NCBI GenBank assembly: GCA_963693055.1
Contig: OY843751.1
Location: forward strand, 1,280,001-1,344,000
Direction: 5' to 3'
Source: a bacterium
GTDB taxonomy: Bacteria > Zhuqueibacterota > Zhuqueibacteria > Residuimicrobiales > Krinioviventaceae
Length of the DNA stretch: 64,000 bases
Shown in pieces: positions 22,168 to 59,400 of this stretch; within the stretch, counting starts at the first letter, position 1, and every line of letters starts with the position of its first letter. Position numbers and translations under genes: made by a program. Under the pieces are notes generated by a model that was not told the origin of the DNA, ran no database searches, and saw nothing but the letters and a program-made list of their open reading frames with translations.

Positions 22168-22584
22168 TCAGTCGATAGTTACTACAAGGATGGGGCAGGA
22201 AACCAGGTCTGAAACGCGTTCGTCAACCGAGTCTGTAATGACTGCTTTGATCTGGCTTTTGGATTTATGGCCAATAATCAGCATATCGTATCCTTTTGCT
22301 GCATCGGCTATAGAGTTTGCATATTCATCACTTTCAACGATGCTGATTGCAATGTTTTTTGCCAATTCGGGTTGACCTGCTTTTTCGATCAGTTCACGCA
22401 GGTCTTTTTCTTCAACCAGTGGTAGTCCGTCCATCATCATATGGGCTTTGCCGGCAGCAGGATCGTTGATATGGAATGCAGATAATTCTGAGCCCAGTGC
22501 ATCTGCCAGTTTTACGGCTTCATTAACAATAGCGGTTTCTTTTTCAATACCTTCCAGAGCTATTAAAATCTTTTTATAAGGCAT
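22168..22584 (-). CDS. Universal stress protein
   Basis: YKKILIA..DMLIIG..SVDERV..CPILVV. Confidence 0.85.
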   Translation of the reverse strand: MPYKKILIALEGIEKETAIVNEAVKLADALGSELSAFHINDPAAGKAHMMMDGLPLVEEKDLRELIEKAGQPELAKNIAISIVESDEYANSIADAAKGYDMLIIGHKSKSQIKAVITDSVDERVSDLVSCPILVVTID

Positions 22585-22874
22585 TTGGGGTCCTCCAAGT
22601 CAGAGTTTTTGTATCATATTTTAATCATACCCTCCTGGTTGTTTGATTTTCTGATCAGGCGGGTAATGTATATATTTTCAATGTAGACAAGTTAGTCAGA
22701 TTATTTTTAAATTACAAGTGATTTGATTGGGGGGATGTTGTCTGAATTGGGATTTTGAGGATGAATGGATTTGGGTTCAAGTTTTTTGGGAAATGGAGTA
22801 ACTGTAAATTAAATTTGGTGCAAGATGTACAATTTGATATTGGAATATGTAGGATGAAATGTTGTTATGAATAT

Positions 22875-22908
22875 TAATCTTGACTTTTTAAGACCTGGGA
22901 TGTAATTT
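22875..22908 (+). promoter_or_regulatory. Sigma70-type promoter of TA module 1
   Basis: TTGACT-17-TAATTT; 17-mer TAATCTTGACTTTTTAA identical to 23717-23733. Confidence 0.55.
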
Positions 22909-22965
22909 AAAATGAGATGCAATTTTTAACGGTAAGGAGAGATATTCAAAATCCAAACGATTTCA

Positions 22966-23217
22966 ATGTTTTTTGGTATTATTGTTCGTATGTATTGCGC
23001 ACCTGGAGAACATAATCCGCCCCATTTTCATGCGTATTATCAGGATTATAAAGTCGTTGTCGATATAAATCATTGTGAGATTACTGACGGAGATTTTCCA
23101 CCCAAACAAGCAAAGCTGGTTGTAGCCTGGGCAGAATTGCGTAAAGAGGAATTCCTAGCGGATTGGGAATTGGCATCAAAGGGTGAATTGCCTTTCAAGA
23201 TTGATCCTTTAAAGTGA
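22966..23217 (+). CDS. DUF4160 protein (putative TA component); canonical start appears mutated
   Basis: MFFGIIVRMY..EHNPPHFHAYY; upstream in-frame ATC CAA ACG ATT TCA versus the usual MPTIS. Confidence 0.8.
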   Translation: MFFGIIVRMYCAPGEHNPPHFHAYYQDYKVVVDINHCEITDGDFPPKQAKLVVAWAELRKEEFLADWELASKGELPFKIDPLK

Positions 23218-23231
23218 TATTTGAGGTTTTT

Positions 23232-23477
23232 ATGTATTTGTCCGTTGTTAAAGTTAAACCATTAAAAGATTTCAAGCTGCTATTAACATTCGAAAATGAT
23301 GAGAATCGCATTTTTGATGTATCTCCCTATCTGGAGATTGGCAGGTATGCCGAATTAAAAAATGTATCTTTGTTTAATTCTGTAAGGAAAAGTTTTGATT
23401 CAATCCAATGGCCCAATGAACTTGATTTTGATCCTGAATTTTTATATGAGAAAAGTGAGTTAGTAGAGGATGTCTAG
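23232..23477 (+). CDS. DUF2442 protein (putative TA partner)
   Basis: VKVKPLKDFKLLLTFEN..IQWPNELDFDPEFLY; GAGG RBS. Confidence 0.85.
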   Translation: MYLSVVKVKPLKDFKLLLTFENDENRIFDVSPYLEIGRYAELKNVSLFNSVRKSFDSIQWPNELDFDPEFLYEKSELVEDV

Positions 23478-23600
23478 TATAGAGGTTTCAAGATTTATTG
23501 AATTTATAGATTGCAAGTTTGAATTTGATGGTTATTTGTTCCTAATCCCGAAAATCTTTAAATCCTTTCATCATAATTCTGACGGTGAAGGTTTGTGATA

Positions 23601-23691
23601 GTAGATCACATTTTAATTACTCACCACAAGGTGAGCTATGAGACCGCTTTCAGCGGACAAACGAAATGAATTTCGTTCTACAGGGGATTGT
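23601..23691. repeat. Repeat A copy 1 (GTAG-type REP/REPIN-like double hairpin)
   Basis: GTAGATCACA...CCGCTTTCAGCGGACAAACGAAATGAATTTCGTTCTACAGGGGATTGT; 48-bp core 23644-23691. Confidence 0.85.
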
Positions 23692-23716
23692 ATGAATTTG
23701 ATAGATAGGATTTTAA

Positions 23717-23750
23717 TAATCTTGACTTTTTAATGACAAGAAAGTACCTT
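23717..23750 (+). promoter_or_regulatory. Sigma70-type promoter of hicAB
   Basis: TTGACT-17-TACCTT. Confidence 0.55.
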
Positions 23751-23812
23751 ATATAAATTATGTCTGTTGGAAAGCCGTTGTTTGAGATTTATTAAATCTA
23801 TCGAAGGACTAT

Positions 23813-24070
23813 ATGGGCAAATACGAAAAACTGTATATTCAAATTATGACGAGAATGTCAGATGCGAATATTCCGTTTGATTCGATGGTTATATTATTAA
23901 AGAAACTTGGTTTCAAAGAACGTATTAAAGGGGATCACCACATTTTAACCATGGATGGTGTAGAAGAGATAATCAACCTGCAGGCAAAGGAAGGAAAAGC
24001 AAAGCCTTATCAGGTTAAGCAGGTGCGCGAAGTGATTCTGCGATATAATCTCAAATTAGGAGTAAAATGA
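23813..24070 (+). CDS. hicA: HicA-family toxin
   Basis: LGFKERIKGDHHI..INLQ..AKPYQVKQV. Confidence 0.88.
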   Translation: MGKYEKLYIQIMTRMSDANIPFDSMVILLKKLGFKERIKGDHHILTMDGVEEIINLQAKEGKAKPYQVKQVREVILRYNLKLGVK

Positions 24071-24282
24071 TGGTTTCAAAATATGAAATAATAATTTATT
24101 GGAGCGATGAAGACAGCGCATATATAGCGGAAGTGCCTGAATTGTCGGGTTGTATGGCGGATGGCGCTACATATCAGGAAGCACTGGCAAATGTGGAACA
24201 GATCATTCAAGAGTGGATTGATACCGCAAAAGAACTGGGACGAGAAATTCCAACACCAAGGGGAAGATTGGCATACGCATAA
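24067..24282 (+). CDS. hicB: HicB-family antitoxin
   Basis: YEIIIYWSDED..AEVPELSGCMADGATYQEAL..IPTP; ATGA overlap with hicA. Confidence 0.9.
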   Translation: MMVSKYEIIIYWSDEDSAYIAEVPELSGCMADGATYQEALANVEQIIQEWIDTAKELGREIPTPRGRLAYA

Positions 24283-24307
24283 GCCGGTGCTAGCTCAATT
24301 GATTTAT

Positions 24308-24414
24308 TGTCTGTATCAGGATTTATAGGTTTCAGTGAGGCCAGGATTTGTGCTTTTTAAAACTCAGCTGCTTTCAAATAATCTTTTAAATCCCGCACAT
24401 TCTGATTCTGAAGG
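24308..24414. repeat. Repeat B (long imperfect hairpin, TGTCTGAATCAGGAT...ATCCTGATTCAGAC family)
   Basis: TGTCTGTATCAGGATTT...ATTCTGATTCTGAAGG. Confidence 0.65.
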
Positions 24415-24423
24415 TGATTGTTT

Positions 24424-24519
24424 GTAGATCACAATTTAGTGGGATTTACCGCCGCAAAACGGGCTAAGAGTCCGCTTTCAGCAGACAAACGAAATGAATT
24501 TCGTTCTACAGGGGATTGT
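24424..24519. repeat. Repeat A copy 2
   Basis: Core 24472-24519 is 47/48 identical to copy 1. Confidence 0.85.
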
Positions 24520-24621
24520 CTGAATTAAGATTTTTGGGATTTATAGGATGATAAGATTAGGTTTGATGCTTGCTGTTACCCAATCCCATAAATCGTTAAT
24601 CCTTTTATCCTAATTTAGACA
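24517..24621. repeat. Repeat B copy
   Basis: TGTCTGAATTAAGAT pairs 13/15 with ATCCTAATTTAGACA. Confidence 0.7.
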
Positions 24622-24765
24622 GTGAAATAAGGATTCTTGGGTAAAGTTCAAAATTGAATATCCAATTATTATCAGTTTTTAAGAAAATATCAAACAAAAA
24701 TATCTTGATTTATAATTTATTGCACTATAAATTTAAGAAAATTCATTTAATAATTGAGAATTGAA

Positions 24766-24981
24766 ATGACATTTAATGAAATAGAGCAAAAATCACTTGA
24801 ATTAACAGCAAATGATAGAATACGTCTTGTTGAAAAATTGATAGCAAGTTTGGATAAACCTGATCCAGAGATCGAGGCGGCATGGATCAAAGAATCTGAG
24901 GCTCGTTTGGCTGCGTATGAAAAAGGAGAATTGAAAACAGTACCTTTGGAAAAAGTACTTGGGGAATTGAAACGTAAATGA
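24766..24981 (+). CDS. Addiction module antitoxin (TIGR02574-like)
   Basis: LTANDRIRLVEKLIASLD..IEAAWIKESEARLAAYEKGE. Confidence 0.85.
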   Translation: MTFNEIEQKSLELTANDRIRLVEKLIASLDKPDPEIEAAWIKESEARLAAYEKGELKTVPLEKVLGELKRK

Positions 24982-25266
24982 AATTATTTTTTTCTGAACT
25001 TGCTCAAAACGAATTACAGGATGCAGTTACTTATTATGATGAAATTTCGTCTTTATTGGGGGATGCTTTAATAAAAGAAGTCAAACAGGCTGAAAAGTTG
25101 ATTACTGTTTTTCCTTTCGCATGGACCAGTGTTGGTAATCATCAGAGAAAATATATTTTAAAAAAGATTTCCATATATGATGATCTATAAGATTTATGGA
25201 GACCGGATCATTGTTTCTGCATTTGCTCACCAATATCGTAATCTGGAATATTTTATTGATAGATAG
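24978..25266 (+). pseudogene. RelE/ParE-family toxin, frameshifted
   Basis: AQNELQDAVTYY.. in frame 0; after TTTTAAAAAAG the +1 frame gives RFPYMMIYKIYGDRIIVSAFAHQYR..stop 25266. Confidence 0.85.
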
Positions 25267-25290
25267 CAAAATACCCTGAACTGTCCGTGG

Positions 25291-25383
25291 ATAGATCACA
25301 CTTTGGGATTGCTCACCGCATGGTAGGTTATGAGCCCGCTTTCAGCGGACAAACGAAATGAATTTCGTTCTACAGTGGATTGT
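25291..25383. repeat. Repeat A copy 3
   Basis: Core 25336-25383 is 47/48 identical to copy 1. Confidence 0.85.
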
Positions 25384-25496
25384 CTGAATCAGGATTAGCT
25401 GGATTTGAGTTTTTTTTACATTGATATGTCCTTTATTAAATCCCGATATATATAATCTTATAATCTTGTAAATCCTACGCATCCTGATTCAGACGG
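25381..25496. repeat. Repeat B copy (best preserved)
   Basis: GTCTGAATCAGGAT (25382-25395) is a perfect inverted repeat of ATCCTGATTCAGAC (25481-25494). Confidence 0.8.
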
Positions 25497-25536
25497 TAAA
25501 ATCCTGTGCCAGAGGCACAGGCTAGGGACTTGAGAG

Positions 25537-26190
25537 CTAATAAAGTGTATCTAATAAATATTTTAATGTTTTTTCTTCAATATAAAGTGATTTCAAATCA
25601 TATATTTTTATTGTGGTTATTGTATCCCTGCAAGAAGTTATATTTAAAATATTGCGTTTACCATCCAATTCCAGTTCAGCATATTGACACCTGTAAATGA
25701 AATCAAGGTTTCTCACAAGTTTTATGTTTGTGTTATATTGATATTCCTGTTCGATTGTAATAAAATATGGATCAAATGCCATTGGCTTATTTCTATATAT
25801 ATTGATTTTATTGTTATTATATAGAATGGAATCCAACAATTCATATGATTTATTTGTAGTATCGCCATAAAATAAAGTTTTGGGGATTGAATATATTTCA
25901 AATAAAAATGTAATTGTGATTATTGATACCATAGGTATGCTTGAAATTATTGTGATAATCCTTAACAGATTTTTTTTAAATTGAAATGCCGAGATTAACA
26001 ATAAAATAGATAAAGGAGATAGTAAAAATATTAAATAGCGGGATAGATAAATACCTTTATATGAAATATTTATCTCTGGCCTATATAAAAAATAACACCA
26101 GTAAATGATTATATATAGTATAATAAAAATACCAAATAAAAAATATTGATTTAGTGGTCTTTTTTTAAATTTGAACATATTTATACTCAC
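25537..26190 (-). CDS. Very AT-rich hypothetical membrane protein
   Basis: 217-aa ORF, three N-terminal TMs followed by a soluble domain. Confidence 0.55.
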   Translation of the reverse strand: MSINMFKFKKRPLNQYFLFGIFIILYIIIYWCYFLYRPEINISYKGIYLSRYLIFLLSPLSILLLISAFQFKKNLLRIITIISSIPMVSIITITFLFEIYSIPKTLFYGDTTNKSYELLDSILYNNNKINIYRNKPMAFDPYFITIEQEYQYNTNIKLVRNLDFIYRCQYAELELDGKRNILNITSCRDTITTIKIYDLKSLYIEEKTLKYLLDTLY

Positions 26191-26358
26191 TTTTTTATTA
26201 TACTGGGCAGTTAATTTAATCTTTTAATCAAGTAAGACCGTAAAAACGATTTTATAAATATCTGTAAAGTATAAAGGATCCCCTGAATATTCAATTTATA
26301 ATATTGTTAATTAAGAATATTTATTTTAATTAATCAAGACAAAATATCAAGTGCTGAT

Positions 26359-26398
26359 AAAAAAATCCCCCACAACCCAAATGCGATTGTGGGGGATT
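26359..26398 (-). terminator. Intrinsic terminator of rex-serC-serA
   Basis: AATCCCCCACAA/TTGTGGGGGATT stem with a T-run on the minus strand. Confidence 0.8.
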
Positions 26399-26421
26399 AG
26401 AGTCATTAAATATTTATCTGA

Positions 26422-47876: not shown

Positions 47877-48627
47877 TTAGAATTTTTACTCTGGCTGACC
47901 CCCGGCTGGTGGATCGGTCGGAACTGAAAATATAAACTCTGTTAAAAAAAAATGAAGAGTTTTGCGTCAAAAGCGAAATTTTAGACCCAGTCAATTAAAG
48001 ATGTTTAGTGCAATTTTAAAAAAATATTAAGGTCTTTTATGAAAATTGCTTTATTAATTGGTGTTGATAGTTATACGAATGGGGTAAGTGATTTACCAGC
48101 ATGTAAAAAAGATGTTGATTCCATGAAAAGTATTATTCATGCTACAAAGCTATTTGAAAAAATATTAGTGATAAATAACGATTGTAACGGTGAGAATGTA
48201 AAAAAACAAATCACCGACTTTGTTGAAAAATTAATGGATAGTGAAATTGAAGAATTGTTTTTTTATTTCACAGGACATGGTGAATATTATAATAATGAAT
48301 TCTATTATATTCTTTCTGATTTCAATGAACAAAGAAGGAAACAAACAACTTTAGAAAATGAAGAAATAGATCAATGGATTCGTTCTTTAAATCCAAAACT
48401 CACAATTAAAGTCGTTGATGCTTGTAACTCTGGAACATCTTATATAAAAAATGAAACGGCTATTAGTGATTATCTTGAAAAATCAAAAAATAAATTTAAT
48501 AATTGTTATTTTATGTTTTCGTCTAGTCAAACTCAGTATTCATATCAAGATAATGAGTTGAGTCATTTTACACGTAGTTTTCTTGCCTCACTTTTTAAAA
48601 AAAATGATGAAAAGATACGATATAAGG

Positions 48628-49601
48628 TGTGATTTATCTTAGAGTTGTTTACAGTTTTCTACTGAATTGAACCCGTTCCTTTAAAAGAGATAGGGTTCAA
48701 TTCAGTAGAAACGATTTTAAGTGTTGTTTACAATTTCGGGATTTCCTAATTTATATTATTCAAAGGAGATCCTATGGTTATTCACAAACATACTCGATTA
48801 ACGCCGATTCAAAGAGAAACAATTTGTAAATTATATTTCGATGAAAGAAAACGTGTCTGTGATTTAGCTCGTGAATTTCGTGTTAGTCGTCCTACAATCT
48901 ACAAGATAATACATCGTGGGCGTCAAAAAGATTATACAGTTCACAAGAGCACAAACAAACGCTTTCGCTGTTTGAAATACGGCATCAAACGCCTGGCTAA
49001 AATTGAGAAAAAAATTGAAGAAAAACTCAAACGCCAGGCAAAACGATATAATAAGGACTATCCAGGTCAAATGATACACGGAGACACTAAAAAATTGCCC
49101 TTAATCAAGGGAGAATCACCTTTTGAACGCACTGAATACTTGTTTGTAGCTATTGATGACTTTTCAAGAGAGCTATACGCAGCTATTTTACCGGATAAAA
49201 CTCAATTTTCTGCTGAAAAATTTCTGGAACAAGTCGTTGATGAATGTCCATATACAATCGAACAGTATTACACTGATAATGGTACAGAGTACCGAGGTGA
49301 TCCGAATAACCACAAATTTATGCTATTGTGCAAAGAACACGGTATTGAACAAAAATTTACCAAAGTCAGAAGACCACAAACCAATGGAAAGGCAGAAAGA
49401 GTTATACGGACGTTGATTGAACTCTGGCATAATAAAACCATATTTAATTCATCAGCTCATCGTAAAACAGAACTGAAAAGATTTCTTAATTACTATAATG
49501 GAGTAAAACCACATAAAGGTATTGATGGCCTTACTCCTGAAGAAAAACTAATTCAATATTTTTATCCCGATATATTGTAAATAACGCTAGCATTTCTAAC
49601 A
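48628..49601 (+). mobile_element. IS481-family insertion sequence, 974 bp
   Basis: TGT...ACA ends, imperfect IR (TGTGATTTATCTTAGAGTTGTTTACA / TGTTAGAAATGCTAGCGTTATTTACA), TSD TATAAGG at 48621-48627 and 49602-49608. Confidence 0.9.
48774..49580 (+). CDS. IS481-family transposase (rve integrase core)
   Basis: HKHTRLTP, IHGDTK, AIDDFSR, TDNGTEY, PQTNGKAER. Confidence 0.92.
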   Translation: MVIHKHTRLTPIQRETICKLYFDERKRVCDLAREFRVSRPTIYKIIHRGRQKDYTVHKSTNKRFRCLKYGIKRLAKIEKKIEEKLKRQAKRYNKDYPGQMIHGDTKKLPLIKGESPFERTEYLFVAIDDFSRELYAAILPDKTQFSAEKFLEQVVDECPYTIEQYYTDNGTEYRGDPNNHKFMLLCKEHGIEQKFTKVRRPQTNGKAERVIRTLIELWHNKTIFNSSAHRKTELKRFLNYYNGVKPHKGIDGLTPEEKLIQYFYPDIL

Positions 49602-50464
49602 TATAAGGATATAATTGACTTTATTTCTGATGATTTTGAAGAAAACACAGCTCAATCTCCTGTTTTTATTACACAAGCGTCTTTTACAGAGATTTTTTGT
49701 CATGTAGATGAAAATATAAAAGATATTATTAAAACGTTGAATATTCAAAGAGAAGATATATTAATCGAAGATAAAATTGAGTCAACAAATATAGCTGAAA
49801 AAAGAAGTCTTGAAGAGATTATAAGTAAGGATTCTGAAAATTGTCGTACAAATGAAGAAGTTGAAATATTTTTAGGGAAAATCAAAACAGAAATAAATAA
49901 TAAAAAGTTCTCATCTGAAATTTCTTCTGTATTTGATTTTCAGTTTAATTTTTCTAAACATGATGAATTTGATAACTTAATTAGCGAAAAAGTGATTGGT
50001 AATTGGCTTTCTAAAAATGAAAATGAGTTTTTTGCTGAAGCAAGAATAGAAGAAGAATCTTATAAAGAAGAAGTCTCAGATTTTTTTAATTATGGATTAT
50101 TTAATCGAGGAACAAAAATAATAACAAAATATAGAGACATTATAGTGGGTTATACTAACACCTCAAATGTTAGTTTTGACATAATTAGAATTGATGCAAA
50201 TTCTAAGTTCCCCAACGTTTTGTCTTACAATTGCACTATATCAATCATTTTATCAAAAAGATCAATTGTATTTTTTTATTTTTATAATCAATATCAGGAG
50301 AAGAACTGGAATCAACGTGAATTACTACCTAATATAAAATGGTCATATTTTGAAAATTTTTTTATTGATGAGAAAAAAACAATTGATTCATTAAATAGTA
50401 TACTCGATGAATATGGAATTTTTATATTAAATAATTTGAAAGAACGATTTAAACTTAATAGTTC

Positions 50465-50698
50465 GTAGCCCGGACTTTGAGTCCGGGGTTGTAAAGAGAA
50501 GATTTTTAGGCTACAAATTGTATACGCATCGGAGAACGTTACACTCATCTCCGATGCGGTCGTTCAGGGGTGAGTGTCAGGCTACACTTTGCCAGGCACT
50601 TTTTAAGTACAGTCTAATGTAATATATGATTCTATTTCAAGTGATTGCGAAACACAGTTTCGCATAAAATGTCCAATCCAAGTTGAACTTGGATTGGA
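50465..50698. repeat. Cluster of four REP-like hairpins
   Basis: GTAG-CCCGGACT/AGTCCGGG; CGCATCGGAG/CTCCGATGCG; TGCGAAAC/GTTTCGCA; TCCAATCCAAGT/ACTTGGATTGGA. Confidence 0.7.
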
Positions 50699-50782: not shown

Positions 50783-51070
50783 ATGAACATACACAATCCA
50801 CCGCATCCGGGAGAGTTTATTGATGAGGTTTATTTAAAGCCGTATAATCTCAGTATCCGCTATCTGGCGGCAAAGCTGAATGTATCTCCATCCACTTTCA
50901 GCCGTTTGATCAAGGGGCAGAGCAATGTCAGTTCTGACATGGCCCTGCGGTTGTCTAAAACACTGGGCAGAAGCGCGGAGAGTTGGCTGATCATGCAGAA
51001 CCATTACAATCTCTGGCAGGCGCGTCAGCAGGTCAACCTGGAACAGGTTGAGAAATTGGTCTTAGAATGA
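50783..51070 (+). CDS. higA: HigA-family antitoxin (orphan)
   Basis: HNPPHPGEFI..MALRLSKTLGRSAESWLIMQ. Confidence 0.9.
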   Translation: MNIHNPPHPGEFIDEVYLKPYNLSIRYLAAKLNVSPSTFSRLIKGQSNVSSDMALRLSKTLGRSAESWLIMQNHYNLWQARQQVNLEQVEKLVLE

Positions 51071-54698: not shown

Positions 54699-56030
54699 CA
54701 CTACTGTCCCAATATTAGTTGAATAAATTCAATTGGTTATCATTTTGTAAGCCATGAGTAAGATTATCATTGTTGCTAAGTAACTGTAAAATAGGAGTTC
54801 TTTGAAACATATTAACGCTTAATATTTGCAAAAAAGTGTAGAGCGGAATCGCAATATTCAAACGTTTCTTTATTATCGCTATAAGCACGTATATACATAT
54901 TGCAATCCATATTTGCGATTTAACGGCATTGACTGAAGTGCCATAAAAGGACTTAATTTTTAGGTTTTGTTTTATCCATTTAAAAAACAATTCAATTTGC
55001 CAGCGGCATCTATATAGTTCAGGAATAGTTAATGCCGGCAAGTTAAAAATATTTGTCAACAAAACGAGCGTTCGTTTTTGATCAGTTATGTATATTTTAA
55101 CGCGTCTGAGTCTTTCAGGATAATCTCGTGATGCATAGTAATTCACTAAAGAAACTGTTTGATCACATCGAAGACCTGTACTTTTATTAACCGGATGTGA
55201 ATAGACCCTTTTAGCTTTAAGGTTCGACTTTGCCGGAATGACAAAAAAGGCTCCAGCTTGATGGAATCTATACAGACGCTCAAAATCTATGTAACCCTTG
55301 TCTAGCAAATATATGGCGCCAGGCTCAGGAATCAACATATCAAGAATGTTAACATCGTGGATTTTCCCTTCAGTTATCTCTATAAAAGTTGGTATGTTAC
55401 CACGAAGATCCATTTGAGTATGCACTTTTATAGCACCTTTTGATTTTCTAAATCTGGCCCATGGAAATAAAGAAAGGCACAAGTCAATTGTTGTTGAATC
55501 TAATGCGTAAACCATTTCTTTTAATTCAAGGCCGAATTTTTCATCACGATATAACTTGCGGGCCTGATTAATAAGTATTTGAGCAAATTCAGCATAGATG
55601 CGCCAGTCTCGATGTTCATTTGCATTAGCCAAAGTATTTCGAGCAACTATGCTGCGAAAACCCATGTGGTAAAGTAGTTTTCGTTGTGATCTTAAACAAG
55701 CTTCTATATCTCTCAAACTATCTCGGAAAGTGAGTTGGGCAAAAGCCATGCAATAAAATTGATCAAGACACGAGAAGGATTTAACTTTGTACTCTCCTCT
55801 GTATTTGTGGACGCAACGATGGAATGCCTTTAAAGGCAGGAATTCCATTATTTGAGAAAAAACAGTTTTCCCTTCGTGCATTTCGCCATTCCTCCGCCAT
55901 TGTTTTGTTGTGATAGAATGGTGAAATGTAATAATTTAATTCAAATCGTTCCCGTTAAAAATGATAGCGTAAAGATATAATTAACAATTAAATACAATCA
56001 CTACTTTCCCCTAACGTTGGGACAGTAGTG
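54699..56030 (-). mobile_element. IS4-family insertion sequence, 1332 bp
   Basis: IR CACTACTGTCCCAA(TA/CG)TTAG 18/20; 9-bp TSD ATATTCCAA at 54690-54698 and 56031-56039. Confidence 0.93.
54715..55881 (-). CDS. IS4-family transposase (DUF4372 + DDE_Tnp_1)
   Basis: DSTTIDLC, DKGY, YRCRWQIELFFKWIKQ. Confidence 0.95.
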   Translation of the reverse strand: MHEGKTVFSQIMEFLPLKAFHRCVHKYRGEYKVKSFSCLDQFYCMAFAQLTFRDSLRDIEACLRSQRKLLYHMGFRSIVARNTLANANEHRDWRIYAEFAQILINQARKLYRDEKFGLELKEMVYALDSTTIDLCLSLFPWARFRKSKGAIKVHTQMDLRGNIPTFIEITEGKIHDVNILDMLIPEPGAIYLLDKGYIDFERLYRFHQAGAFFVIPAKSNLKAKRVYSHPVNKSTGLRCDQTVSLVNYYASRDYPERLRRVKIYITDQKRTLVLLTNIFNLPALTIPELYRCRWQIELFFKWIKQNLKIKSFYGTSVNAVKSQIWIAICIYVLIAIIKKRLNIAIPLYTFLQILSVNMFQRTPILQLLSNNDNLTHGLQNDNQLNLFN

Positions 56031-56459: not shown

Positions 56460-59400
56460 ATGAGAACATTATTAATCACTTTACTGTTATCTCTTTTGTT
56501 AGTTACAATGGTTTTTGCAGATGGCACCCAGCCACCGGGTTTTGGCAATTTGGATGATCCCTACCTGGTTTCTACCCTGGACCATTTGATCTGGATCAGC
56601 ACCAATTCCGGTTCATGGAGTTGCCATTTTAAACAAACCGCAAACATAGATGCTCACAACTCTGCAGCGCTGAATTTTAATGGCAGCGTTTTTTTGGGTT
56701 TCTCTCCTATAGGCGACAATACAACTCCATTCAGCGGTGTCTATGATGGACAGGGTTTCTGGATTAGTGAGCTATATATTAATCGTACAGCTAATAACAA
56801 TCGGGGGCTATTTGGTTATATGGATGGGGTCTGGCCCACTGTGCAAAATCTGGTAGTGAAAAATTCTTATGTTGCCGGTGATGATAATGTTGGCATTCTG
56901 GTGGGAAATGCTCAAGGTCCATCAGAGATTACAAATTGTAGTTCAAACGGTGATGTTGTGGGTGATTATAATTGCGGCGGTCTTGTGGGAACAGTAGGAA
57001 ATTCTGCAACAGTAACAAACTGTTCTTCAACTGCTGACGTTGCCTGCTCTTATAACAAGATAGGCGGATTGGTGGGATCTAACGATGGGGAGATCAACAC
57101 CAGTTTTGCTAAAGGTAATGTTAATGGTAATTCCAGGGTCGGTGGACTAGCTGGGTATTCTGGTGGAACCATTAACAATTGCTATGCTGCAGTAGGATCG
57201 GTTTCCGGTTTAACCTTTATTGGTGGATTACTGGGACGAAATATAGGCGGTACGGTAAATGACTGTTTTGCTGCCTGCTCTGTTTCAGGCAACTCTGATA
57301 TTGGTGGATTGGCGGGGGATAACGATGCAACCATAAATAGGTGTTTTTATGATTCCCAGGTTTCCGGACAATCCGATGTGGGTAAAGGTAGTCCTCAAAA
57401 AACCATCATGATGAAAACATTTTCTACTTTTTATTACCAATATGCTTTTGATTTTGAAAATGAGACAAGAAACGGCTCTGATGATGTTTGGGATATGGAT
57501 TTTTCAGGCGGCGTCAACAGTGGATATCCGTATTTGGCCTGGCAGGATGGTTCAACGGTTTCGCTACCAAACGAACCGGCAGAGCCGAGCGGTAGCGGAA
57601 CAAGCGGCGATCCCTACCAGATTGAAACTCTGGAACATTTGATATGGCTCGCCCGTAGCCCTGGAAAATGGAATTCAACTAAATATTATATTCAAACTGC
57701 GAATATTAACGCCGCTAATGCAAGTTCATGGAACGGTGCGGCCGGTTTCCCTTCTATTGGCAAGTCATCAACAAGTTTTGATGGTAATTATAATGGTCAG
57801 TATCATACCATTAGTGATGTTTATATGAGATATACCGAATGGAATGATGTTGGCGTTTTTGGTAAAACCAATTGCGCTAGTATAAGAAGGTTAGGTGTAA
57901 TAAATGCAAACATTACCGGTAATGATAATGTGGGGGCAGTAATTGGTGATGGATCAGGAGATCATAACCTTTATCTTGGTACTATAGATGATTGTTATTC
58001 TACCGGTGTAGTTAGGGGTGGCAATTATGTAGGTGGAGTAGTAGGTGTTACAAACATATTTTTTGAGACTACCAACTGCTATTCAGCCGCCGATGTTTCG
58101 GGTGATGGCTATGTTGGTGGACTGGTAGGGGCTAACAGGGGAGCTGTATTTACCAGCTTTGCCAGGGGGGATGTTGATGGTTCTTATTTGGTGGGAGGCC
58201 TGGTAGGTTATACCAGCGATGATATAAGGAACAGCTATGCTACCGGTTCTGTTTCGGGGGGGAATAGTGTTGGTGGGCTGATAGGAAGGTTTGGTGACGG
58301 TACTATTTCGCGTTGTTTTTCCGCAGGCAGCGTGTCAGGAACAACAGATGTTGGTGGTTTAATTGGAGACAAGATTGGTACTAATATGTATTCCTGTTTT
58401 TATGATAGTGATGTTACCGGCATGACTGATGAAACAAAAGGGAATCCCAGAACCACTGATGAAATGAAAAATTTTACAACATTTTATAATGCCGGTTGGG
58501 ATTATGTTTCGGAAACAGCAAACGGCACTAATGATCAATGGGACCAGGATTGTTCTGCAAGTATCAATAATGGTTATCCCTACCTGAGCTTTCAGGATGG
58601 TTCAAGCGTGAGCTTGTCACTTTTGCCAGAGGCACCGGATGTTGGAGACGGATCCAGTGGAGATCCCTACCAGATTGCGTCACTTTCAAATCTGTATTGG
58701 TTGAGTTTGAATTCAGAGGAATGGGGTAAATATTTTATCCAGACTGTAGATATTGATGCCTCAGTTACGTCTACAATAGAATGTGGATCAGGTTTTCCGC
58801 CTATTGGTAATGCGTCTACAATGTTTTCCGGTTCATACAATGGGCAGGAACATACAATTGATGGCTTATACATCAGCCGTAATGGTGAAAGCTATGTGGG
58901 ATTGTTTGGGTATACGGATAATGCTATGATTCAAAAGCTGGGGGTAACGTCTTGTAATATTGACGGTTCTACCTATGTTGGCGCCATTGCCGGACGAAAT
59001 AACAATTCTTCGCAAATTTCAAGCTGTTATACTTCCGGTAATATTGAAGGTACCTTAGAAACAGGAGGTATTGTAGGGCGAAATAATACCGATGCAATTA
59101 TCAGGAATTGTTATTCCATGGCATCTGTGGATTGTCCGTCTAGTACTGGTGGTGTAGCGGGAGCAAACTTTTCGGGTTCTGAAATTATTAAAAGTTATGC
59201 ACGGGGTAGCGTAACGGGAATTCTGGATGTTGGTGGTTTGGTAGGAAAAAATAGCGCTATAGTAACAAACTGTTTTTATGATATGCAAACTACTGGTAAA
59301 GTTGACAGTGACAGGGGAACACCTTGTCCAACGGTTGTAATGCATATGCTTGATGTTTTTTTACAGGCAGGTTGGGATCTGGAAGTAGAGACGACAAATG

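Follow-up and report, generated by a model that had tools for sequence, protein, structure and literature searches.

Toxin–antitoxin gene pairs between REP-containing repeat mosaics at a likely hotspot of gene turnover

In a 64,000-nucleotide stretch of a Krinioviventaceae genome (contig OY843751.1, positions 1,280,001 to 1,344,000; hereafter the window), three unrelated toxin–antitoxin (TA) gene pairs lie on one strand and each is followed by a near-identical 48-bp repeat (the 48-mer). Comparison of the source genome (G000) with a sister genome of the same genus (G001) indicates that this locus is likely a repeat-marked hotspot of gene turnover and not a new integron-like system. We tentatively favor, while stopping short of calling it probable, a reading in which the 48-mer is a piece of a mosaic resembling a bacterial interspersed mosaic element (BIME) that was duplicated on the spot, with TA pairs arriving and leaving by recombination there and nicks supplied in trans by a RAYT, the tyrosine transposase associated with repetitive extragenic palindromic (REP) sequences.

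Results

Unrelated TA pairs alternate with mosaic spacers

Gene pairs were typed with Pfam profiles and with the TIGR02574 and DhiT profiles at their family cut-offs. The three pairs are DUF4160/DUF2442, HicA/HicB-like and a PF09720 (Unstab_antitox)/TIGR02574 antitoxin with its partner (Table 1), bearing out the original prediction of three unrelated modules; HicA fell below its Pfam cut-off (E 2e-4) and TIGR02574 scored above its own. The sixth gene, a partner that we take to be of the RelE/ParE type, gave no Pfam match because it is frameshifted. Its two natural pieces match genes beside addiction-module homologues in relatives (32-45% identity), and a homologue search with the truncated toxin matched only itself. 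Two of the three toxin genes are thus damaged, as the DUF4160 gene has also lost its start codon, reading ATC (22951) where five homologues start with Met (the next in-frame ATG is at 22966). Each module had been credited with its own promoter, a claim not upheld by counting, as promoter-like sites in the interval are at chance level (24 versus 21.5 ± 4.8). A 17-bp box with a TTGACT hexamer precedes the unrelated modules 1 and 2, these being its only two copies in the genome, and may be a promoter box belonging to the duplicated platform. The orphan 213-aa open reading frame (ORF) to the right returned unnamed clusters only in a cluster-atlas search.

The 48-mer was found at 23644, 24472 and 25336 (0, 1 and 1 mismatches; spacing 828 and 864 bp; no matches in 100 shuffles), with (G/A)TAGATCACA upstream at 23601, 24424 and 25291, all as described originally. 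The accompanying statement that a 48-bp repeat closes each module held only in part: the repeat does follow each pair, but alignment of the copies extends the conserved unit past the 48-mer to about 90-105 bp, the distance from the last stop codon to the 48-mer varies (167, 190 and 70 bp for modules 1, 2 and 3), and a second palindrome family is interleaved. Read from the left, each spacer consists of a decayed GTAG-tagged palindrome, two small hairpins and the GTAG-tagged hairpin inside the 48-mer, here termed REP A, which on the minus strand reads GTAG + AACGAAAT/ATTTCGTT. The intact family of the left partner has 11 loose copies, five of them within 65 bp of a copy of REP A. Mosaics 1-3 fold better than their shuffles (z -5.3, -2.5 and -2.4) and alternate with a second palindrome, family B; this is long and bulged, its ends read GTCTGAA...TTCAGAC, it contains 9-mer GGATT units, and only the last of its copies in the array folds significantly (Table 1).

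Judged by its tag, shape and dispersal, the hairpin of the 48-mer is a GTAG-type REP, in agreement with the architecture proposed for it. GTAG stands directly before the minus-strand stem in all three copies, where the descriptor used expects GT[AG]G 0-2 nt 5' of the hairpin (PMC6006769). The stem has 8-bp complementarity with a 2-nt loop and folds as 7 bp with 4 nt (expected, 7-20 bp with a loop of 2-5 nt), and REP A is dispersed, multicopy and extragenic. As the stem starts with AACG, containing 2 G/C, it fails an automatic-search filter of at least three G/C in the first four stem bases, a filter stated to miss manually found REPs (PMC6006769). The mosaics also show local tandem amplification with locus-specific linkers, as expected of BIMEs and of REP doublets (REPINs). 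No inverted A–A doublet was found in the source genome, where the partner opposite A in the array, at a distance of about 60 bp, is a decayed GTAG REP from a different family; A–A doublets are common in other phyla.

The mosaics are likely local duplicates and lack a fixed junction

Outside a 22-bp core, the array copies are 78-82% alike and 74-81% identical to the copy in the sister genome, compared with at most 68% for any other locus. The copies being closest to each other, the three mosaics are likely on-the-spot duplicates rather than sites imported with each module. Homology among them stops at differing places, and cargo ends lie 0-130 bp from the mosaic, so that there is no fixed junction. 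Short-read contigs from the source sample end precisely at each of the three repeats and otherwise follow the assembly without differences or gaps; given this letter-for-letter agreement, the array and the frameshift are not confined to the assembly. The contig joint at 24541-25349, one side of which spans 26 bases, is compatible with the repeat itself. No joint pointing to a circle, for which a read check had been proposed, or to a deletion between copies was seen in these contigs, from which rare forms cannot be excluded.

These features bear on the original proposal of a dedicated integron-like platform, in which REPs would replace attC sites and cassettes would be excised, circularised and reinserted. 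Same-strand unrelated modules with conserved spacers fit such a platform, as do the presence/absence difference from the sister genome and a second A-bracketed TA locus (both below). Against it stand the absence of a fixed crossover point, of a recombinase at the array and of a cognate enzyme in the genome; the same module was never found at another REP site or in another order, the sister genome lacks the three query proteins, and the mosaic copies are locus-specific duplicates. As REP A is scattered mostly beside ordinary or other accessory genes, and neither reordering (in the comparison of the two genomes) nor a circle was seen, a platform for cassette capture or shuffling is improbable.

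Known cassette systems were considered separately. The integron integrase profile TIGR02249 reached at best 81 bits (cut-off 265) in the source and sister genomes, while exceeding the cut-off in two of three other genomes of the family. Sites of the attC type end in RYYYAAC...GTTRRRY; with a pattern of our own built on these ends, no pairs 35-140 bp apart were found on either strand of 22501-26400. Both results support the original prediction in so far as it noted no integrase and placed REP-type sites where attC would be. Xer (pdif) modules were rejected for want of any match in the interval to the 11-6-11 XerC/D consensus at up to 5 mismatches, and a CRISPR array on account of the 828/864-bp spacing with whole genes, versus spacers of 20-70 bp, and the lack of an Rfam hit at the gathering score.

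The sister genome carries a short allele

The sister genome aligns with both flanks at about 95%, on the left as far as 22772 and on the right from 26360, enclosing an interval of about 1.2 kb versus 3.6 kb in the source genome. It holds a family-B left arm, one mosaic, one whole B and a 198-aa ORF unrelated to the 213-aa orphan. Searches of the sister genome with the three TA query proteins found none of them, and the left breakpoint of homology falls inside the B palindrome arm (22772). The usp-serA interval is therefore variable between the two genomes, as the comparison suggested with the original prediction was meant to reveal. Sample X4 also gave the short allele, although it is possibly the sample behind the sister genome and hence not independent. 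The loop of the serA terminator hairpin (26364-26398) is inverted between the two genomes.

The single sister mosaic has private letters in common with each of copies 1, 2 and 3 in succession, a pattern that fits either an ancestor or a collapse product. Such sharing would be expected of collapse or conversion if host recombination alone had shaped the locus, with mosaics of 100-470 bp acting as homology patches for RecA or for replication slippage and no HUH nuclease involved after the initial spread. DNA with a similar mosaic would enter by single crossover, and direct copies would collapse. Duplications of 124-745 bp at 80-97% identity elsewhere, and the failure to find a cognate RAYT, also speak for this route. 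Conversely, TA homologues are rarely flanked by such repeats and REP A is missing from 41 of 43 genomes of the order, so that donors with matching patches look scarce, and the perfectly matching core here is shorter than 50 bp. We regard host recombination alone as unlikely.

REP A is scattered, and its type occurs beside two RAYT-like genes elsewhere

At up to one mismatch, REP A has 20 copies in the source genome and 11 in the sister (reversed control, 0), and it was not found in the other 41 of 43 genomes of the order searched. At up to three mismatches the source genome has 26 matches, or 24 in 15 clusters after dropping two inside genes, mostly beside ordinary or orphan genes and away from TA genes. 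Six copies lie within repeated units of 320-745 bp ahead of Rhs-like fragments (labelled by eye). These C-terminal fragments occur in rows with immunity-like genes, each after such a unit holding palindrome B and REP A (Table 1).

The REP type of A occurs as inverted doublets in records of Planctomycetota, Bacteroidota and Ignavibacteria and in many metagenome contigs. A metagenome scan for the genus-type repeat gave no matches and hence no third allele of the locus; a less strict scan for the REP type returned at least 125 stretches, 80 of them with DNA. At one locus (L186) a RAYT-like gene (69 bits, cut-off 80) lies between two copies of the REP type, at another (L272) a homologue 50% identical to the L186 protein starts directly behind a REP doublet, and at a third (L189) a RAYT lies 1.8 kb from the REP. 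Overall, the REP type stood directly beside a RAYT-like gene in 2 of 92 loci examined.

Five RAYT-like loci were found in the source genome, four of them broken, and five in the sister; the flanks examined carry other palindromes. At G000:C1:372522-373751, an intact RAYT-like gene (373138-373698) and an unrelated 178-aa gene are bracketed by three identical perfect palindromes with GTAG at one end and CTAC at the other. This REPtron-like unit with a passenger gene is missing from the sister genome, which has a different palindrome at that place. In the sister genome, at G001:C3:339249-342500, a RAYT gene lies within a long tandem row of GATCGTGACGGAG-type palindromes, and the counterpart in the source genome is a TIR-like, defence-looking gene set.

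The exact pattern of family B was found in 1 of 43 genomes, being too strict to inform. Genes of the GxxExxY family (PF13366; five in the source and eight in the sister genome, loci L195-L216) mostly have 9-mer-array palindromes, belonging to several sequence types, on their flanks. The five source-genome loci carry sibling repeats rather than B; B itself flanks one PF13366 gene, in genome G006, out of 20 GxxExxY loci examined. The idea that TA pairs sit within the loop of B was dropped, as whole hairpins of B stand on each side of that gene.

Palindromes are over-represented at sites of gene gain and loss

The two genomes were compared over 100 tiles (2.0 of 6.5 Mb of the sister genome, 1.74 Mb aligned at 90%), yielding 144 differences of at least 250 bp; as a single genome pair, they do not give the direction of gain or loss. 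With 13 palindrome families listed by hand, 58 of the 75 intergenic regions containing one lay at variable sites, versus 141 of 636 (for REP A, 10 of 11), counts in which gain and loss of the repeats is itself included. A cleaner test took neighbouring genes present in both genomes and the intervals between them that contain extra genes in just one of the two. There were 53 such intervals, of which 50 had an empty allele of at least 40 bp; 7 insertion sequence (IS) cases and 15 double replacements were set aside. Palindromes were present in 14 of the 50 empty alleles and in 27 of 561 unchanged intervals, a Mantel-Haenszel odds ratio of 5.7 whether stratified by length or by orientation. The original prediction was to fall if the repeat proved scattered, without enrichment next to TA or accessory genes, and if module gains and losses did not break at it; the repeat is indeed scattered genome-wide, but it is enriched at variable sites.

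Cargo between direct repeat copies recurs at three other loci. HigBA and an orphan gene lie between two 146-bp A units in the source genome, where the sister has only higA and no A. The sister genome carries a 466-bp duplication (96.8%) containing A around a 416-aa leucine-rich repeat (LRR) gene, with one copy in the source genome, and BrnT/CopG between two copies of another REP, again with one copy in the source genome. The unit with a RAYT-like gene and 178-aa passenger described above, between three identical REPs, is present in the source genome only. A row of four A units in the sister genome is free of cargo, and other repeat-marked gain/loss sites show no duplication. In the source genome, 2 of 11 TA loci are within 350 bp of REP A, compared with 29 among 4823 genes (p about 0.007, binomial). 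Any listed palindrome family is near 4 of the 11, versus 38 of 600; this incomplete list counts the array once and comprises seven loci backed by profiles, directly or via the sister orthologue, and four identified by eye.

Paralogues of an outer-membrane barrel protein of about 221 aa seem to have changed places among three repeat-rich loci when the two genomes are compared (Table 1). Elsewhere in the window, a caspase-domain gene is split by an rve-type transposase, presumably IS481-like (48039-50468), and is followed by a lone HigA-like helix-turn-helix gene (50783-51070); a DUF4372/DDE transposase lies at 54715-55881, and large GLUG-repeat proteins with a C-terminal sorting domain begin at 56460.

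Table 1 Features of the TA interval in the window, and repeat-rich loci elsewhere in the two genomes.
Feature	Position	Strand	Basis or remark
Left arm only of family-B palindrome (GTCTGAA and 9-mer GGATT units)	22738..22772	+	Sister-genome homology stops at 22772
17-bp box with TTGACT -35-like hexamer	22875..22891	+	Identical to 23717-23733
DUF4160/DhiT-like toxin gene	22951..23217	+	Pfam; DhiT 65.8 bits, cut-off 100
DUF2442 partner gene	23232..23477	+	Pfam
Decayed family-B palindrome	23473..23582	+	Sequence likeness; fold not significant
Mosaic copy 1: decayed GTAG partner REP, two small hairpins, REP A (minus strand, 23660-23681)	23601..23691	+	z -5.3
Second 17-bp -35-like box	23717..23733	+	Genome search
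HicA-like toxin gene	23813..24070	+	Pfam E 2e-4, below cut-off
HicB-like antitoxin gene	24067..24282	+	Pfam
Decayed family-B palindrome	24307..24410	+	Fold not significant
Mosaic copy 2 (REP A at 24488-24509, minus strand)	24424..24519	+	Repeat search, fold
Family-B palindrome, both arms	24516..24622	+	Alignment; fold not significant
TIGR02574/PF09720 addiction-module antitoxin gene	24766..24981	+	Pfam Unstab_antitox; TIGR02574 over cut-off
Presumed RelE/ParE-type toxin gene, frameshifted at A run near 25160	24978..25266	+	Homology of two pieces; no profile hit
Mosaic copy 3 (REP A at 25352-25373, minus strand)	25291..25383	+	Repeat search, fold
Best-preserved family-B palindrome	25380..25496	+	z -3.7
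Orphan 213-aa ORF in 23% GC stretch	25537..26178	-	Sister has unrelated 198-aa ORF at same place
serA terminator hairpin; right limit of variable interval	26364..26398	-	Genome comparison, read contigs
Rows of Rhs-like fragments	G000:C1:2229373-2234100, 5148074-5159740, 1540123-1540370; G001 L015		
Outer-membrane barrel paralogue loci	G000:C1:66300-69100, 147200-150000, 6439700-6442200		

Discussion

The reading that we tentatively favor would proceed as follows. A RAYT-type (HUH) nuclease acting in trans would make single-strand nicks in the mosaics; through nicking and strand transfer, at a distance from the REP that varies, foreign DNA would become attached to a mosaic, which would be duplicated in the process; direct mosaic copies would then collapse by host recombination; and TA pairs would outlast neutral cargo, because their loss is costly, before decaying in turn. 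Loosely placed nicks and joins would explain the local duplication, the ragged junctions and the mixed stacks of palindromes better than site-specific recombination. The driving enzyme is probably lost or non-cognate, which makes the array likely a record of past events and not a dedicated cassette machine.

Several results weigh against repeat-driven turnover of this kind. None of the ten RAYT-like loci of the two genomes is flanked by REP A, although the original prediction had proposed looking for a RAYT between such repeats, and there is thus no REPtron (a tnpA-REP gene flanked by its REP) for A among them. The L186 RAYT protein has no close homologue in either genome, and among loci with the REP type a RAYT match lay nearby in just 1 of 80 from metagenomes and 2 of 12 from genomes. 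No listed repeat was present at the empty site for 36 of the 50 clean gains and losses. In the strictest test, repeats were defined blind from k-mers, long alleles and additional IS cases were taken out, and the two strata were used together; the counts fell to 9 of 46 versus 19 of 561 (odds ratio 3.5, p=0.052). Of 37 loci with TA homologues in relatives, 7 were near GTAG hairpins or 9-mer arrays, compared with 1 of 26 control loci (p=0.13), suggesting that modules seldom travel with such ends. Overall, the association between palindromes and gain or loss had the same sign in all three tests, but it is modest in size and comes from one genome pair.

Part of this evidence fits a rival account, in which a cargo-free row of mosaics came first, in a neutral spot behind the serA terminator, and later received unrelated illegitimate insertions, the repeats being bystanders in a shared safe harbour. 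Cargo-free mosaic rows do exist, cargo ends lie at unequal distances from the REP, most gains and losses occur without repeats and the strict test is borderline; the orphan ORF swap at the right ends at the terminator and not at a REP, and 9 of 11 TA loci are not near A. Bystander repeats sit less easily with the direct copies that bracket cargo at four loci where the sister allele has one copy or none, with an enrichment in the same direction in all three tests, and with the 17-bp box common to modules 1 and 2 and found nowhere else. We regard this account as rather unlikely, though less so than host recombination alone.

A broader extension of the favored reading would see the stacks of REPs and 9-mer palindromes as a genome-wide, integrase-free gene-capture system of this lineage, with mosaics nicked by RAYTs and possibly by GxxExxY nucleases. 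Foreign genes (TA pairs, Rhs tips, outer-membrane and defence genes) would be copied in while the resident mosaic, and sometimes its promoter box, was duplicated, and arrays would expand and contract as integrons do, with neither attC nor IntI. This extension is speculative and unlikely.

The role of REP/RAYT systems in their hosts is an open question, and gene sequestration by BIMEs in E. coli was proposed on few examples. For cargo bracketed by repeats, the two genomes provide alleles both filled and empty, along with an association that runs counter to the REP-desert rule of Pseudomonas, and so make the sequestration idea testable with defined substrates. If the repeats are merely bystanders, the locus is an ordinary TA-rich insertion hotspot. 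A literature search, with paywalled papers, figures and supplements outside its scope, returned no account of TA arrays bounded by REP mosaics.

Arrays of integrons and of clusters of attC sites lacking integron-integrases (CALIN) hold small unrelated genes on the same strand, are rich in TA pairs and have conserved imperfect palindromes between the genes. The present array shares same-strand unrelated small genes, TA richness and imperfect palindrome spacers with them, but differs in lacking IntI, RYYYAAC/GTTRRRY ends and a fixed junction. Family B has the 9-mer-array palindrome design found around GxxExxY genes, with its arms here flanking TA pairs; the literature search yielded no paper on this design.

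The closest likeness is to REP systems. In their passages on TnpA-REP, PMC3333891 and PMC8266576 describe an enzyme that binds single-stranded GTAG-REP, cuts to either side of it, also at some distance, carries out strand transfer and is presumed to act in trans, with local BIME amplification and sequestration of flanking genes proposed; BIME units able to sequester whole genes are proposed for E. coli in the former (PMC3333891). In 24 E. coli strains, hicAB is reported to stand in place of the REPtron, with the BIMEs lost along with the REPtron (PMC3333891, PMC8266576). The mosaics resemble E. coli REPs and BIMEs in their GTAG hairpin, apparently opposed REPs with linkers, locus-specific tandem amplification and putative trans-acting enzyme, but differ in having about 24 copies rather than hundreds, a stem base rich in A-T, hairpin partners that belong to other families, a set of three TA pairs lying between direct copies and a cognate enzyme that appears to be gone. 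The GTAG repeat families in the relevant passages of PMC3733652 likewise have a GTAG tag, a stem of 6-9 bp and a loop of 2-4 nt, occur in Planctomycetes as well and are joined with other palindromes in mosaic intergenic regions; gene cargo between copies, as found here, is absent from those passages. As in the Pseudomonas REPs and REPINs covered in part by PMC3390384, several REP families coexist in one genome, each with its own RAYT in Pseudomonas. Strain-specific genes of Pseudomonas are placed in REP deserts by the same source (PMC3390384), whereas here palindromes are over-represented at sites of gene gain and loss.

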